A program made the translations under genes and the position numbers. A stretch of 64,000 nucleotides of DNA. Origin: Cladosporium halotolerans. Taxonomy: Eukaryota. Within the stretch, counting starts at the first letter, position 1, and each line of letters starts with the position of its first letter. Positions 40,132-64,000 of this stretch are shown piece after piece. The DNA lies in assembly GCF_011745625.1 (NCBI RefSeq), contig NW_027191503.1:1-64000 (forward strand). The letters are read 5' to 3'. The notes below the pieces were generated by a model. The model was given only the letters and a program-made list of their open reading frames with translations. It had not been told where the DNA came from and searched no databases.

Positions 40132-40250
40132 ACATACGACCACAGGTCAGTGAAAACTGGGCATCCCGTCCGCTCTGCCATACATAAGCACTGAACCGGG
40201 CGACTAGTACTAGAGTGGGTGACCATCTGGGAATCCCGCCTGTTGTATGT
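40132..40250 (+). rRNA. Dispersed 5S rRNA gene (119 nt)
   Basis: ACATACGACC...CATCCCGTCCGCTC...TAGTAC..GTGGGTGACCA..TGGGAATCC...GTTGTATGT with pairing ends, followed by a T-run Pol III terminator. TATA-like TTTATAGAA about 20-25 nt upstream. Confidence 0.96.
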
Positions 40251-40393
40251 TTTTGCAATTGGGTCGCATGACAGTAAGACTAGCATTTGCTTTTTACTTC
40301 GTTAACTACCGCTTATCGCAAAGGGCAAGCGAGTGTACAGCGCGGAAATACTTCAAATCTGAAGCTTTCCTTCTATCTTTCTACGCTATGGTT

Positions 40394-47800: not shown

Positions 47801-48373
47801 TGCTCCGCCCTCTCTTGACCCAGTGTTGGTCTGTGTGCTCAGACAAAATACTGATCCGCCACTCCTTACGCTGCCTCTGACGACTGCGACTCCTGGACCA
47901 CCGTCGCCCTGTCTCTTAGCATTGTCTGCACGCAAGCGCCTCTGGCCTTCCACTTTCTTTGAGCACCACCACGCACGCGAGTCAGGAATCATGCAACAAT
48001 GACCATTGTGCGCCGCAATCCCATTGTTCTTTGTCCTTGAGCCGCCCTGGGAGCCGGGAAGAACGCCATTGTCCACCGGCCTTTGACAGACAAAGCCATC
48101 GCGTCCAGGCACTACTTTGCTGCCCGCCTTCCCGCACACTGGTTCTGCTCCACGACACTCGTTTAGCGACTGCATATTTCGTCAATTGTGCCTGGAGCAC
48201 AATATTCACCAAGCCAACAGCTGCAAAGTCCCAGTTTTGCACGTTACACAGCACGACGCACTTCACACAACGCCCATTCACTCTTTGCTTGGCGATACTG
48301 CACTCGGAAATCCCTTGCGTTCCTACACTCTTTGTTCGAACCGTTTAGCGTCATCGACCTCGTGCCGGTCACG

Positions 48374-50449
48374 ATGAACCACTTCAATGAGCACATTCAC
48401 AACCACGCTGGTTTTGGAGCGGCGTCAAATAACCTCCATGCCAGGCATGTACACATGGCGCCCAGATCACCACACCCCGAACCAGTTCCTGGAGAGGGAC
48501 TCACCGACTTTGGAGATTTCATTAACGCTACCCTGGAGTCCACTGGATACTTCCACGGCCTGAACGGCGTTAACCAGGAACTCAACTACCTCCTCACCAA
48601 TGCCTTGGTTGTTTCATTCTTTGCCCTCCTGGGCTTGGTTCTTGGATACCGATGGCTACACATGAGCCATTCATATTTAAGGAAGCTCATGGCGATGGGG
48701 AGATTTGAGGATCAGAGATACTGGATGTACAACCACCACAAGAAATGGGCGAGCTTTAAGAAGCACGTGCTCTATGCACCGCTAGGAAAAGTGCGACACA
48801 ACCAGGAGTTCAAGATTCCTCTCATCACAAACGCAGAATCTGGCATGGGAACTCTCCCCTCGAGATTTCACACTGTTCTGCTTGTTGGCTACGTCTTCAG
48901 CAACTTTGCCTACTGCATGGCTCTGGACTGGTCCCACCTGGAGAGCTCGGCCGTCCTCGCTGAGCTTCGCGGTCGCACTGGCCAGCTGGCAGCCCTCAAC
49001 ATCATCCCAACAATACTGTTCGCACTCCGCAACAATCCCTTGATCTGGATCACCGGAGTGAGCTACGAGGCCTACAACCTGCTTCACAGATGGTGCGCGC
49101 GAATCATGATCCTGGAAGCCGTCCTTCACACCATTGCCTGGGCGGTTAACGTACACCGAGCCAATGGACCTGAGCAAATCGCACTTTCTCTCGCCACCAG
49201 CAAGAGTTACGCTTGGGGAATGGTCGGAACTGTGGTCTTCAGTTTCCTCTTCATGACGGCGCCTGCGCCAATTCGCCACGCTTTCTACGAGACGTTCCTC
49301 AACGCCCATCGCGTACTGGTTCTGATGGGCCTGATTGGTGTTTACATCCACATCGACGCCGCCAACCTCCCTCAAATGCCTTACATGCAGCTGACCTTCG
49401 CTCTTTGGGGCGCGGAATACTTCTGGAGATTGTACAGGATTTTCTACCACAACGTCAGCCGGAAAAAGGGTATCACCAAGGTTAAGGTCGAGGCCTTGCC
49501 AGGTGATGCATGCCGTGTGACGTTCGAGCTCCGGAGACCTTGGAAATACACACCAGGCTGCCACGTCCACGCATACCTCCCGACGATCGCTCTCTGGTCC
49601 AGCCATCCTTTCTCAGTAGCCTGGGCGGAAGGCCGCACAAGTCAACCAGCGCTTGAGATGGAGCTCGAGAAGCTTCCCTCCAACAACCCAAGCCAGATTC
49701 TCGGGGTCAACCGCCGACCTAGCCTCGTGCCACGCGCCTCGATCTACGGCAAGGACGGCGTCCTCAACACAATCAAAGAGAGCTCCATCGGCGCCGGCTC
49801 AAGTCAGCCCGGCACGAGCTCCAACGCCTGCATCCCCCGCGAAGCCGACATCACCTCCATCTCCCTCGTCATGCGAAAACGCAACGGCATGACGAAGAAG
49901 CTCTTCGACAAAGCCGACGCCCTCCCCTCAAAATCCTTCACAACCTGGGGCGCCATCGAAGGCCCCTACGGCGGGCACGAGACCTTCGCCTCCTACGGCA
50001 CCGTCATCCTCTTCGCTGGTGGTATTGGCATCACGCACTGCGTCGGCTACGTGCACCACCTCCTCCAACTCTACGCGCAGGGCACATGCGCGACGCAGAA
50101 GATCCTGCTCGTATGGTCCGTCACGAACACGGAGTCGCTCGAGTGGGTGCGCACGTGGATGGACCAGATCCTGCGCATGGAGCACCGCCGCGACGTGCTG
50201 CGCATCCAGTTGTACGTCACCAAGCCGCGCCACCGCGGCGAGGTCGTCTCCAACACGGGCTCCGTCCAGATGTTCCCCGGCCGCTGCAACCCGAGCACGG
50301 TAATGGCGAAGGAGATGCCGGAGCGCATCGGCGCCGTCGGCGTGACGGTCTGCGGGCCGGGCGCGTTCGCGGACGTCGTACGGAAGGCTGTGCGCGAGGT
50401 CATTGACGACGGCGCGGTCGATTTCATCGAGGAGGCTTTCACGTATTAG
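48374..50449 (+). CDS. Ferric/cupric reductase (FRE/NOX superfamily integral membrane reductase)
   Basis: RGRTGQLA, RNNPL, LLHRW..HT and HR..H heme His pairs, HPFS, IEGPYG, FAGGIGIT, VCGPG, EEAFTY*. His-rich N-terminus. Confidence 0.92.
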   Translation: MNHFNEHIHNHAGFGAASNNLHARHVHMAPRSPHPEPVPGEGLTDFGDFINATLESTGYFHGLNGVNQELNYLLTNALVVSFFALLGLVLGYRWLHMSHSYLRKLMAMGRFEDQRYWMYNHHKKWASFKKHVLYAPLGKVRHNQEFKIPLITNAESGMGTLPSRFHTVLLVGYVFSNFAYCMALDWSHLESSAVLAELRGRTGQLAALNIIPTILFALRNNPLIWITGVSYEAYNLLHRWCARIMILEAVLHTIAWAVNVHRANGPEQIALSLATSKSYAWGMVGTVVFSFLFMTAPAPIRHAFYETFLNAHRVLVLMGLIGVYIHIDAANLPQMPYMQLTFALWGAEYFWRLYRIFYHNVSRKKGITKVKVEALPGDACRVTFELRRPWKYTPGCHVHAYLPTIALWSSHPFSVAWAEGRTSQPALEMELEKLPSNNPSQILGVNRRPSLVPRASIYGKDGVLNTIKESSIGAGSSQPGTSSNACIPREADITSISLVMRKRNGMTKKLFDKADALPSKSFTTWGAIEGPYGGHETFASYGTVILFAGGIGITHCVGYVHHLLQLYAQGTCATQKILLVWSVTNTESLEWVRTWMDQILRMEHRRDVLRIQLYVTKPRHRGEVVSNTGSVQMFPGRCNPSTVMAKEMPERIGAVGVTVCGPGAFADVVRKAVREVIDDGAVDFIEEAFTY

Positions 50450-59692: not shown

Positions 59693-60052
59693 CCTGCCGC
59701 TATAGGAAGTCTGTAGCAGAGCGCAATGCAGCCTACACGCATGGTCGAGTTTTGCTTGCGTCGTGATTGTTGCAAGAGCCTTGAGCAACTGCAGCCATAC
59801 CCGTTCTGAAGACTTGGAGAAGTCTTGAGATGCAGGCTGCCACGCTAGCAGCACCCGGCACGCCGGAGCCACATCCTTGCTGCAGGGAAAGCTTGGCTCT
59901 GTCCCCGCGAAGCGAAGCGTGATGTCAGCCTCGGTCAGAAAGTGGCGGTCCTGCATCATCAGAGCGTCCGAATACCCCGATACATAACAAACATCATTTT
60001 CTACCAGCGACAACTCCCGTTTCCTTGTTATTGTAAAAGTACCGAAATCTTC

Positions 60053-61993
60053 ATGATACCCACTTTGCGAGGCAGACCGCAAGCGTTTCGCAACCGAGTC
60101 GCCCAAATGGCGAGCCATCTCAGTACAAGCACCAATGGTGCTTCTAATGCATCATCAAAACGATTCAATATCCGAGACTTGCCGAAGAGCAATAACTTCA
60201 CACAGAAACTCCCACCGGACGAGCAGTACCGAACTCCTACAGCATCACACAACGAAGAAAGGAAGAAGCTTGGCCCGCGGCTGGTCAAAAACGCAGCATA
60301 CACATTTGTCCGTCCGGACCCGTTCGAGGAGACGGAATTGGTGGGTGTTTCGCAGACGGCGCTGAAAGATCTGGGTATAGACCCAGAATCGACGAAGGAG
60401 AAAGATTTCAAGGATGCGGTGTCGGGCAATAAGATCATCACGTTCGATGGCGAGCCAAAGGACAGCGACATCTACCCTTGGGCCCAGTGCTACGGCGGTT
60501 ATCAGTTCGGGTCGTGGGCGGGACAGCTGGGCGATGGCCGCGCAATCTCTCTTTTCGAAACAACGAACCCAAACTCCGGCGAACGGTACGAGCTGCAGCT
60601 GAAGGGCGCAGGCAAGACTCCTTACTCGCGCTTCGCCGACGGGCGAGCAGTCGTGCGAAGCAGCATAAGGGAATTCGTCGTCAGTGAGGCCTTGAACGCC
60701 CTCAGAATCCCAACCACTCGAGCCCTCAGCCTAGTCCTCGCGCCCGAGGCGCGAGTCCGTCGCGAGCGCATGGAACCCGGCGCTATTGTTGCGCGGTTCG
60801 CGCAAACCTGGCTTCGCCTCGGCACCTTCGACCTCGCACGCTCCCGCGGCGATAGAGTACTCATTCGGCAGCTCGCAGACTACACGGCCGAAGACGTCTT
60901 CGGGGGCTGGTCCAACCTGCCCTCCAAGCTGGCTTCCACGGAAGGGAAAGACTTACTGGAACCTTCTCGCGGCGCCTCCAAAGAAGACCTTGAAGGCGAG
61001 GGCGAAACGCAAGAAAACCGCTACACCCGCCTCTACCGCGAGATCGCGCGGCGCAACGCCAAAATGGTAGCACACTGGCAGGCTTACGCTTTCACCAATG
61101 GCGTCCTAAACACGGACAACACATCGGTCTACGGGCTTTCGATCGACTTCGGCCCCTTTGCCTTCCTCGACAATTTCGACCCCAACTACACCCCAAACCA
61201 CGACGACCACATGCTGCGCTACTCCTACAAGAACCAGCCCAGCATCATCTGGTGGAATCTGGTGCGGCTCGGCGAGGCGCTGGGCGAGCTGATCGGTTCT
61301 GGCGCGCGGTGCGACGAAACAGAGTTCGTCGAGCAGGGCGTTCGCGAGAACTGGTCAGACGAGCTGATCAAGCGCGCTGAGACGCTGATCGGTCAGACGG
61401 GCGACGAGTATCGCTTGATTTTCATGGCGGAGTACAAGCGGCTGATGACGGCGCGGCTGGGCTTGAAGAGCTTCAAGGAGTCGGATTTCGGCGAGCTCTA
61501 CTCGGAGTTGCTCGACTCGCTCGAGGCGCTCGAGTTGGATTTCAACCACGCTTTCCGACGGCTGAGCTATATCAAGACGGAGGAGATCGACTCGGACGAG
61601 AAGCGCAAAGACATCGCAGGCCGCTTCTTCCACACCGAAGGCCTCACCAGCCTCGCGGGCAGCGAAGCCGATGCGCGCGAAAGGCTCGCTGCTTGGCTGG
61701 AGAAGTACCGCTCGCGGGTTGTGGAAGATTGGGGAGAGGCGTCTGAGGCGTCTGAGGAGCGGTTGCGTGCGATGAGGGCTGTGAACCCGAAATTTGTGCC
61801 GAGGTCCTGGATTCTGGACGAGGTCATTGAGCGGGTTGAGAAGAAGGGTGAGAGGGAGATTCTTGACCGTGTCATGAACATGGCGCTGAACCCGTTCGAA
61901 GAGGAGTGGGGAGGCGATCGCGAAGAGGAGGAGAGGTTCTGTGGTGATGTGCCGAGGTATCAGCGGGCGATGCAGTGTTCTTGTAGTTCGTGA
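60053..61993 (+). CDS. FMP40: SelO-family protein adenylyltransferase (Cys-containing, mitochondrial Fmp40-like)
   Basis: YGGYQFGSWAGQLGDGRA, QLKGAGKTPYSRFADGRAVVRSSIRE, GVLNTDN, DFGPF, VNPKFVPR, C-terminal CSCSS*. Confidence 0.94.
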   Translation: MIPTLRGRPQAFRNRVAQMASHLSTSTNGASNASSKRFNIRDLPKSNNFTQKLPPDEQYRTPTASHNEERKKLGPRLVKNAAYTFVRPDPFEETELVGVSQTALKDLGIDPESTKEKDFKDAVSGNKIITFDGEPKDSDIYPWAQCYGGYQFGSWAGQLGDGRAISLFETTNPNSGERYELQLKGAGKTPYSRFADGRAVVRSSIREFVVSEALNALRIPTTRALSLVLAPEARVRRERMEPGAIVARFAQTWLRLGTFDLARSRGDRVLIRQLADYTAEDVFGGWSNLPSKLASTEGKDLLEPSRGASKEDLEGEGETQENRYTRLYREIARRNAKMVAHWQAYAFTNGVLNTDNTSVYGLSIDFGPFAFLDNFDPNYTPNHDDHMLRYSYKNQPSIIWWNLVRLGEALGELIGSGARCDETEFVEQGVRENWSDELIKRAETLIGQTGDEYRLIFMAEYKRLMTARLGLKSFKESDFGELYSELLDSLEALELDFNHAFRRLSYIKTEEIDSDEKRKDIAGRFFHTEGLTSLAGSEADARERLAAWLEKYRSRVVEDWGEASEASEERLRAMRAVNPKFVPRSWILDEVIERVEKKGEREILDRVMNMALNPFEEEWGGDREEEERFCGDVPRYQRAMQCSCSS

Positions 61994-62142
61994 GGTAGTG
62001 AGAGGCAAGGAGGAGGAAGTTTATGGCAAACCCAGGTAGAGAGCTCGCATGCACATACATACGTGGCACATGTTTTTTTGATGGCCAGGCTACCTGTGGG
62101 ATAAAAATCAACACACATGAGTAATGCAATGTATTTCCAGAT

Positions 62143-62183
62143 GCATAGGAGCACAGGTCAGTGAAATCTGGGCATCCCAACCG
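62143..62183 (+). pseudogene. Truncated 5S rRNA fragment (nt 1-41 only)
   Basis: GCATAGGAGCACAGGTCAGTGAAATCTGGGCATCCCAACCG versus the 5S gene at 40132: 35/41 identical, ungapped. Similarity then stops. Confidence 0.85.
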
Positions 62184-63065
62184 AAGTCCCCTATTCTCAC
62201 CTTCCTATCTGACGTGATCGCCCCTGATGATTAAATCCTAGCTAAATTCCTCGGGGATTAGGCTGAGTCTGGCTCAGGTGTGACGATCGATGGGAGTTCG
62301 AAAGCAGACTTCGCGATTGCAAACTAAGCCATAAGAAATCGATACAACCAGGCACATGCCTGTTCCCAGCTCTTATTGATCTCCTGTCAATGATGTTCAG
62401 ATCTTCGTTTCTCATGCTTGCTTCTTGGCTTCTGAGCACCCTGTCGCTGGATCTTGATTCATAATTCTGTGCGATGGGACCTGATCTTACAACCTTAGAC
62501 AGGAGTCTAGCGGTCTCTGTAAAAAAGGAATACGCTCATCCGGCCAGGTTCGTACATATCGCCGCGACTAGCCCTCATCCGGTGACACTACGTCTGCGTC
62601 GTATGCTAGTCTGCACTATCAGGTCAAGGACCTCAAAGCAGGTTTCAGATATCGAGCGGCGGTAATCCTGTGACACGCGTGAAAGCCACGTTCCTGGAAC
62701 GCGGAAAGGCGGGCCTACTGTACTCTCCACGCCGCTTTTCCGAATCAATTTCTCCACTCGCCATCGTTGCATTTTAGTGCGCATTCAGGTCATTTGGTTT
62801 GCATATGAGCATGAACGCCAAGATGGAGCATGAGCGAGGCCAATCTAAGTGGAGAAGCCCTCGTTCAACCATCAGCCGAAGAGGAAGCAGATGAAGAGAT
62901 GCTTATTGGCTATTCACCCGCCGTCTTGGGCCACCTAATCTATCTAAGCGCCAGTCAAGTCATGTCACATATCCCACTTTTCCCATAAGCTCTGGTTGCT
63001 CCGTACAACAGCGCCCACTCTATGAGTGTCCCCTTCTTCCGTCTTGCTATTTTTCAAGTGGCATT

Positions 63066-64000
63066 ATGAATAGTGCGCAAATGAGCCATCACTCTTATAA
63101 CAATACGAGCATCAGTGGAGATGCGCGAGCTCACTTGGGAAACGTCTTCAACTTCTCGTCGGCAGATTCTGAAGAACAAGACATGCTCGATTGGTTAACA
63201 ACACTCAACCCTTCTGCTAGCCATGATCATGCTTGCAAGCAATACCAAGAGGGCACGCTCCGCTGGATTTTTGACCATGCTACGTTTCGGAATTGGCGCG
63301 ATCGACCAAACACCTTGTTGCCTCAAGCTCTTTGGTGCAGAGGGGGCATAGGAACTGGAAAGACCACCCTGGTAGCGCGAATCTTGAACCACCTCCAAGA
63401 AAGAGGCAAGCCAAGAGGGACCTTGGCTGTGGTGTACTGTCAATACTCCAAACGAGATATTCTGACTGTTGAGACTGTCATGGGCTCTATTTTAGCTCAG
63501 CTGTACCAGCACAGTGAGGGAGGTTTTGGGATACCCGCACACATCAAGGCAGCATACAAATCCCAACCTCGATTCTGGAGAAGGAGTCCGACTCTAGAGC
63601 AGCTTAAAACCTGGTTTCGTCTGAGGCTGGAAGATGAAAATGCTGTGTTTGTGCTGGTGGATGCAGTTGATGAACTCACTCCCAAGCTTCGAAGAAAACT
63701 GCTTCACTCGATGCAATCGACGTCTCGACTGAAGCTCCTAGTTACGAGTCGAGATGCACCAGAAATGGAAACGGACGTGTTTGAAAAGCAAGAGGTAGAG
63801 ATCCGAGCTCACGAGACTGATCTCCAGATCTTGGTGAAAAGCAAACTCCGCGAGGAGGGCACAGAAGCATTGAGACGGCTTATACTAAGCAAACCTGGAA
63901 ATGATCTGTCTTTCTCGACCGATGAAGAACAGATTGTATCTAAAGTCACTCAATTGGCTCAGGAAATGTGCGCTCAGTACCACCATGGCTTTTCGTAAGT
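63066..64000 (+). CDS. NACHT-domain NLR-like protein, 5' part; continues beyond the window, probably via an intron
   Basis: WL..LNP...H, EGTLRWI, F..W, LWCRGGIGTGKTT (Walker A), VVYC, FVLVDAVDE (Walker B), LLVTSR. N-terminal amyloid-like motif. Confidence 0.9.

Follow-up and report, generated by a model that had tools for sequence, protein, structure and literature searches.

Does the broken 5S rRNA gene behind FMP40 in this fungal genome mark the edge of a giant Starship element, the relic of an old one, or only the decay of a 5S copy? The window, i.e. the whole stretch of DNA analysed (64,000 nucleotides), represents positions 1-64000 of the 99,457-bp contig C413 in a 27.9-Mb fungal assembly. 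We consider it highly probable that the site is an old, truncated and captainless relic of a 5S-targeting Starship which has kept its left junction.

A 5S gene stump and the sequence joined to it

The first-pass annotation described the first 41 nt of a 5S gene, ending abruptly, some 150 bp after FMP40, and was accurate on both the distance and the break (Table 1). Aligned with nt 1-41 of the copy at 40132, the single full 5S gene found by Rfam in the 64-kb window, the stump shows 35 identities, and similarity ends after nt 41 (36/45 if the alignment is extended). A 26-nt pattern from this part of the 5S gene, allowing up to 3 mismatches, has 46 matches in the genome including the window stump, against 0 for the reversed control, so the 5S likeness of the stump is not due to chance. 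Age or another 5S isotype had been offered as explanations for its six mismatches (A1G, C6G, C9G, A25T, G37A and T38A, of which only G37A is of the RIP type). Since the orthologous stump in one relative, X3, carries the canonical 5S base at nt 1, 6 and 9, the mismatches point to age, i.e. decay after insertion, and derivation from a different isotype is unlikely. The internal Pol III promoter boxes of 5S genes are located beyond nt 41; because these are missing, no 5S rRNA should be expected from the window stump.

A genome search with positions 62120-62400 returned a match at C246:103597-103657 (87% over 61 nt), which extends 20 nt past the 5S cut. Here, C246:103596-103636 is a perfect copy of 5S nt 1-41 (41/41), followed by nearly the same motif as in the window, and a third copy of the junction, at the same cut and RIPed, lies at C207:34965-35005. 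The missing 5S half is found 97 kb (C246) and 43 kb (C207) downstream of the cut, with nt 35-41 (CCGTCCG) duplicated as a 7-bp direct repeat at both ends of each element; the changes in the window copy of this core are G37A and T38A. Such a junction structure is seen on both contigs, and the window junction is identical with their left junctions: family terminal sequence is joined to the family target at the family cut.

An 18-nt left-end pattern gives six exact matches and one with a single mismatch in 27.9 Mb, compared to 0 for the control. Three of the exact matches stand directly behind 5S nt 41 (window position 62184 included) and three inside the C246 element, all six being at element ends. 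The pattern was composed with the window site in view, and the independent parts of this evidence are the match count and a matrix search: with four C246 left ends as the basis of the matrix and the window site left out, 62184 ranks first on C413, at 26.2 against 14.4 for the next position. The one-mismatch match, C580:341510, lacks any 5S sequence alongside and was treated as chance. The left-end match at the window site spans about 21 bp in this genome, versus about 50 bp among fresher ends.

The source family itself has the attributes of a Starship, as C246:103637-200418 features a captain, direct repeats, inverted arms and typical cargo, with the caveat that the captain is not adjacent to the outer left end. 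The only DUF3435 matches of the genome (C246:129992-131132) fall in this captain, an apparently open frame at approx. 129.4-133.1 kb which lies 26 kb inside the outer left end and 14.6 kb inside the nearest one. Homology searches with it yielded 2 proteins only, both named from Cladosporium fusiforme and taken as a sign of kinship alone, with no classified captain among them. Among 49 frames scanned in the element, DUF3435, DUF3723, HeLo-kinase, ankyrin and Zn2Cys6 genes were recognised, and the GC content of the 97-kb stretch is 0.505, with flanks at 0.576 and 0.552. The right ends of the C246 and C207 elements are 87.6% alike over 233 bp, 5S half included. A 9-bp arm of the left end mirrors an arm of the right end (distances to the core, 9 and 8 nt), and 5S nt 13-25 are matched in register by the right end at 10/13 positions. 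Judged from the sequence, this layout may correspond to what a tyrosine recombinase site should look like, one arm being contributed by the 5S gene.

The C246 element looks like a tandem or nested array. It has at least four left ends (103637, 114774, 178021 and 195127) and three right ends (178020, 195126 and 200418); at its internal right-left joints, all but 1-2 bases of the 7-bp core are gone, and three intervals between ends (5, 11 and 17 kb) are devoid of a captain. A second 5S 5′ stump is present inside it at 198733-198780, 1.6 kb before the outer right end, with a core about 5 bases shorter and a worn left end behind. Other observations on these contigs include a frame matching the single-strand DNA deaminase domain SsdA_C of Pfam (C246:116578-117231, E 7e-16) and, preceding the left junction of C246 by 0.8 kb (approx. 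102500-102780), three tandem units of about 96 bp noted by eye. In the C207 element, the right end and a LINE-like reverse transcriptase frame near 70-73 kb are free of RIP.

Table 1. Features of the window and of related 5S insertion sites (positions without contig name refer to the window)
Feature	Position	Strand or orientation	Remarks
Intact 5S rRNA gene	40132..40251	+	Rfam RF00001, 78.5 bits; reference copy, outside the scar
FMP40/SelO open frame, host flank	59849..61993	+	Stop-to-stop, start codon not fixed; Pfam SelO E 1.2e-120
5S rRNA gene stump, nt 1-41	62143..62183	+	Host half of left junction; 35/41 to intact copy
Direct-repeat core, 5S nt 35-41	62177..62183	+	CCGTCCG in paired elements; 2/7 bases changed in window
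Worn left end of element family	62184..62204	+	17-20/21 identical to five other left ends
Inverted arm	62193-62201	+	Within worn left end; mirrors right end
NLR-type gene, exon 1 and start of intron 1 (63968-64023)	63066..64000	+	Pfam; runs on to contig position 65249
97-kb element splitting a 5S gene	C246:103596-200504		Element body 103637-200418
5S 3′ half of C246 element	C246:200419-200504	Same as 5′ stump	Starts at nt 35
43-kb element of same family	C207:34965-77766		Heavily RIPed, also at the left junction; long stretches with GC about 0.2
5S 3′ half of C207 element	C207:77681-77766	Same as 5′ stump	Starts at nt 35
5S stump (nt 2-40, 82%), worn left end (16/21), 1046-aa NLR-type frame, then full 5S	C46:390904-394815	All in same orientation	
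Further 5S 5′ stumps	C317:33208; C682:552671; C111:606252		
Orphan 5S 3′ halves	C142:112851; C217:155852; C378:25206		

A small, shared island behind the junction

A switch from core to accessory DNA had been proposed at the stump, with more AT-rich sequence behind it. The GC content over 62184-65999 (0.485) is indeed lower than the upstream mean (0.548) and the lowest upstream 3.8-kb window (0.515), but the stretch is neither AT-rich nor RIPed. The switch is present, but small. Behind the NLR gene follow a short unnamed frame, a DUF4419 gene and then, from contig position 69976, Apc15, a carboxylesterase, a cohesin loader and others (Pfam), with a GC content of 0.577 over the remaining 29 kb. 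Conserved genes return 7.8 kb past the junction, and the island has at most this size; for this reason, no giant element has its edge here at present. Of the two readings offered by the first-pass annotation, only that of an old relic stands. A ferric reductase gene (Pfam) at 48167-50449 of the window belongs to a class known as Starship cargo and lies in DNA of normal GC content left of FMP40; no link between it and the 5S scar was seen.

As previously noted from the sequence, the first gene past the stump encodes an NLR-type NTPase (NPHP3_N, E 8e-28; NACHT; weak winged helix; Pfam). A three-exon model with splice sites predicted from the sequence gives an open frame of 689 aa, with a hydrophobic C-terminal part in place of repeats. 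Only about 45 residues precede the NTPase, including a Gly/Asn-rich stretch that matched no family and that we take to be reminiscent of amyloid signalling motifs; it does not fit the published PUASM pattern. An Atlas search with the C-terminal exon gave scores of at most 0.78 and no lead. No close paralogue was found in the genome (best identity 23-30%), and comparison with the C246, C207, C142 and C217 stretches gave no match. Position and GC content suggest that the gene is probably retained element cargo.

The counterpart of the left junction was sought along the whole contig. Searches of the 99,457 bp for the 5S 3′ half gave nothing above 17-18/24 save the two known sites, and when the 3′ half and four right ends were aligned locally with 62184-70000, every score fell in the shuffled range. 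The earlier statement that no DUF3435 captain is visible in the window extends to all of C413 by tblastn with two close captain homologues, and the remaining 35 kb of the contig, where the missing half and recombinase had been expected, contain neither these nor a right end. The locus lacks hallmarks of an intact Starship: there is no captain at the 5′ end, the left copy of the direct repeat is altered and no right copy lies on the contig, and the island falls short of the tens to hundreds of kb, with cargo, of such elements.

Four of 24 listed sequencing runs of relatives were aligned to C413:61001-71000, the other 20 (shares 0.30-1.00) being left out. Three of the four, X3, X15 and X22, have the FMP40-stump-NLR arrangement. 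In X3 the whole 10-kb stretch from FMP40 to Apc15 is contained in one contig, with 406 differences in 10 kb; X15 has FMP40, the stump and most of the NLR gene in one contig (123 differences in 3772), the 3′-end region of the NLR gene being the most divergent part; X22 covers all 30 bins, in pieces. Two of these relatives are 3-4% divergent, and the insertion is therefore older than the split of these lineages. In addition, the X3 sequence is 15 letters longer directly inside the left end, and by manual reading these letters lengthen the agreement with the family motif.

In the fourth relative, X10, FMP40 is followed by a 5S 5′ part at which the contig breaks; the DUF4419-Apc15 side is present, and nothing in X10 matches 62202-65473 with at least 85% identity. 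This could represent an empty site, a fresher insertion or a divergent allele. We did not accept the uncovered stretch as an empty site, as the loose end of the right-hand contig still resembles the reference (27/30 by eye with a one-base offset, 8/30 unshifted) and the X10 contigs break in 5S sequence. At some unplaced locus, X10 also carries a left junction in pristine condition, which would fit a fresher insertion. No 5S gene was found at 18 FMP40 loci of more distant fungi (blastn, 18/18; Rfam, 10/18). An apparent FMP40-Apc15 synteny in three distant loci (tblastx) was dropped, since the Apc15 protein gives no tblastn match there.

Origin of the scar and its rivals

In the reading as a relic, a captain tyrosine recombinase would have integrated the element by recombination at the 7-bp core (nt 35-41) of a dispersed 5S gene, so that 5S nt 1-41 came to be joined to the left end, and the right end to nt 35-120. 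A later deletion or rearrangement may then have taken the right end, the 3′ half of the 5S gene and any captain, with approx. 3-8 kb and one NLR gene staying behind, and stump and left end would have drifted since. Tyrosine recombinases require matching cores. With its right end gone and two of seven core bases changed, the window remnant should no longer be able to excise.

Other scars in the genome fit into this picture. Eight 5S 5′ stumps were seen, on C413, C246 (two), C207, C317, C682, C111 and C46, as well as five 3′ halves starting near nt 35, on C246, C207, C142, C217 and C378, of which those on C246 and C207 pair with a stump on the same contig; these counts are lower bounds. The left-end match to C246 behind six scored stumps is 18, 18, 16, 13, 13 and 8 of 21. 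The last value is that of the C111 stump, cut at nt 41 with different sequence behind, which perhaps represents a second family with the same cut. Repeated insertion at the same 5S base followed by decay to stumps is the normal history of the family in this genome. In two of the short scars, those of the window and C46, an NLR gene comes directly behind the left end. A 36-nt 5S piece (C671:587804-587839) was also noticed just before another NLR-type gene.

How large the first insertion was is the sole point on which the preferred reading differs from an alternative that we regard as unlikely, yet worth weighing, in which a small captainless module, with the NLR gene as its own cargo, was mobilised in trans by the family captain and lost its right end later. 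The many ends, internal fusions and captainless stretches of the C246 element, the position of its captain deep inside the nearest left end, and the second combination of stump, worn left end and NLR gene at C46:394815 all speak for such modules. At the window locus itself no right end is present, neither a second copy of the module nor an empty site was found, and deletion within a normal large element yields the same picture.

A complete giant Starship, with body and right end further downstream or on another contig, is very improbable. The orphan 3′ halves could provide its other boundary, and that on C217 is visibly decayed, like the window stump. No 5′ stump or left end was found within 45 kb upstream of the C142 half or within 35 kb upstream of that on C217, an intact 5S gene (C142:156505) occurs in the stretch searched around the former, and no link of either half to the window locus was found. 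More directly, the return of conserved genes with a GC content of 0.577, the uninterrupted FMP40-Apc15 contig of X3 and the lack of captain, right end and 3′ half on C413 refute a complete element, except in the case that the conserved genes over these 29 kb had been taken up as cargo. Had a partner been split off by an old rearrangement, the window would still hold a relic.

Hardly any more credible is a 5S pseudogene that decayed or was truncated without involvement of an element, next to which an NLR gene arrived independently, despite the six mismatches, the arrangement common to X3, X15 and X22 and the lack of element genes nearby. This conclusion was to be drawn, according to the first-pass annotation, if neither a complementary half nor a captain were found downstream and relatives shared the arrangement. 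Both are the case, the latter for three of four relatives, yet the conclusion fails, since stump and family motif are joined exactly to the base: the 18 bases past nt 41 are the motif whose exact matches all lie at element ends. Stumps that end at nt 40-41 in 7 of 8 cases, the eighth at nt 35-36, are also not expected of random truncation, and this alternative is largely refuted by the shared junction. A 5S-derived SINE or Cassandra-like retroelement, suggested by several copies with a 5S 5′ part and a common 20-50 bp, can practically be dismissed: the common part also occurs at three internal sites without 5S head, left-end similarity ends after 50-100 bp (shared part 21-100 bp) with no tail seen, the head ends at nt 41 without promoter boxes (taken at their customary position), and the complementary 3′ halves and direct repeats at C246 and C207 refute it.

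It may be proposed, tentatively, that the family grows by site-specific accretion, in which captainless modules are added end to end in one 5S gene, most of the 7-bp core disappears from the internal joints, which lock, and the outermost module stays in place on loss of the remainder. If so, small fixed islands, in many cases with an NLR gene, would arise behind 5S stumps over successive rounds, 5S-targeting Starships would regularly supply the host with new immune-receptor loci, and the window would hold one kept module. In the accessible part of the Starship literature, most subscription papers lying outside the search, nested and tandem insertions are mentioned; core-collapsed joints or NLR loci seeded at 5S stumps were not found there. 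The scar itself is a clean, partly datable example of what remains of a 5S-targeting Starship, in which a 41-bp stump and a 21-bp end suffice to recognise an old insertion that captain-based tools would miss. It would gain weight if such scars prove a regular route to fixed fungal NLR loci; the C246 element, where ends are joined to each other at several internal points, is of greater interest.

Relation to known Starships

Among curated Starship insertion sites, 23% are located in 5S genes according to the accessible part of a published compilation (PMC11162782). In the same material, the Arwing (family 9) Starships fusequ2_s05203, fuspro3_s06186 and fusred3_s06256 of Fusarium have the direct repeat cccgtc(c), i.e. 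5S nt 34-40, compared to nt 35-41 here; the core CCCG/GGGC in 5S and this repeat are both matched by the present family. As on C246, the captain is on the same strand as the repeat, and cargo classes such as DUF3723 and NB-ARC/NLR are shared (PMC11162782). In contrast, the terminal repeats listed there (e.g. gttctttcat) are unlike the family motif, the distance between left repeat and captain is 1-4 kb in the published elements (PMC11162782), against 26 kb on C246, and the window locus lacks both captain and right end. The insertion site of laspus2_s07456, listed under clade01, is the reverse complement of 5S nt 25-41 and ends at the same 5S base as the family described here, with the 5S gene antisense to its captain (PMC11162782). 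As this clade01 element has the same site in reverse orientation, a family cannot be assigned from the target site alone; by its sequence, the target site of the Starship that left the relic appears Arwing-like.

Degraded Starships, such as Derelict of Macrophomina phaseolina, provide a parallel for cargo that outlasts its captain, with NLRs as one conserved cargo class in the portion of the report available (10.1101/2021.12.13.472469). Degraded elements are defined there by at least 3 matches to DUF3723, FRE, PLP or NLR without DUF3435; the window island, with its one NLR, falls outside this definition, and the evidence here is junction sequence. Voyager, in the same source, inserts 20 bp from the 5S start, which is another site. 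Osiris and other 5S Starships of Aspergillus fumigatus likewise fragment a dispersed 5S copy, with 5S genes reused in one genome; unlike the few-kb remnant common to divergent relatives described here, those covered in the accessible text are segregating full elements of 48-152 kb (10.1101/2024.06.28.601215). For Hephaestus, integration via a circular intermediate is reported in the part of the source available (10.64898/2026.09.21.753150). Measured against these systems, the window locus works like a Starship left junction and fails membership as an intact Starship: the relic is explained by known biology, and the scar is real but ordinary.
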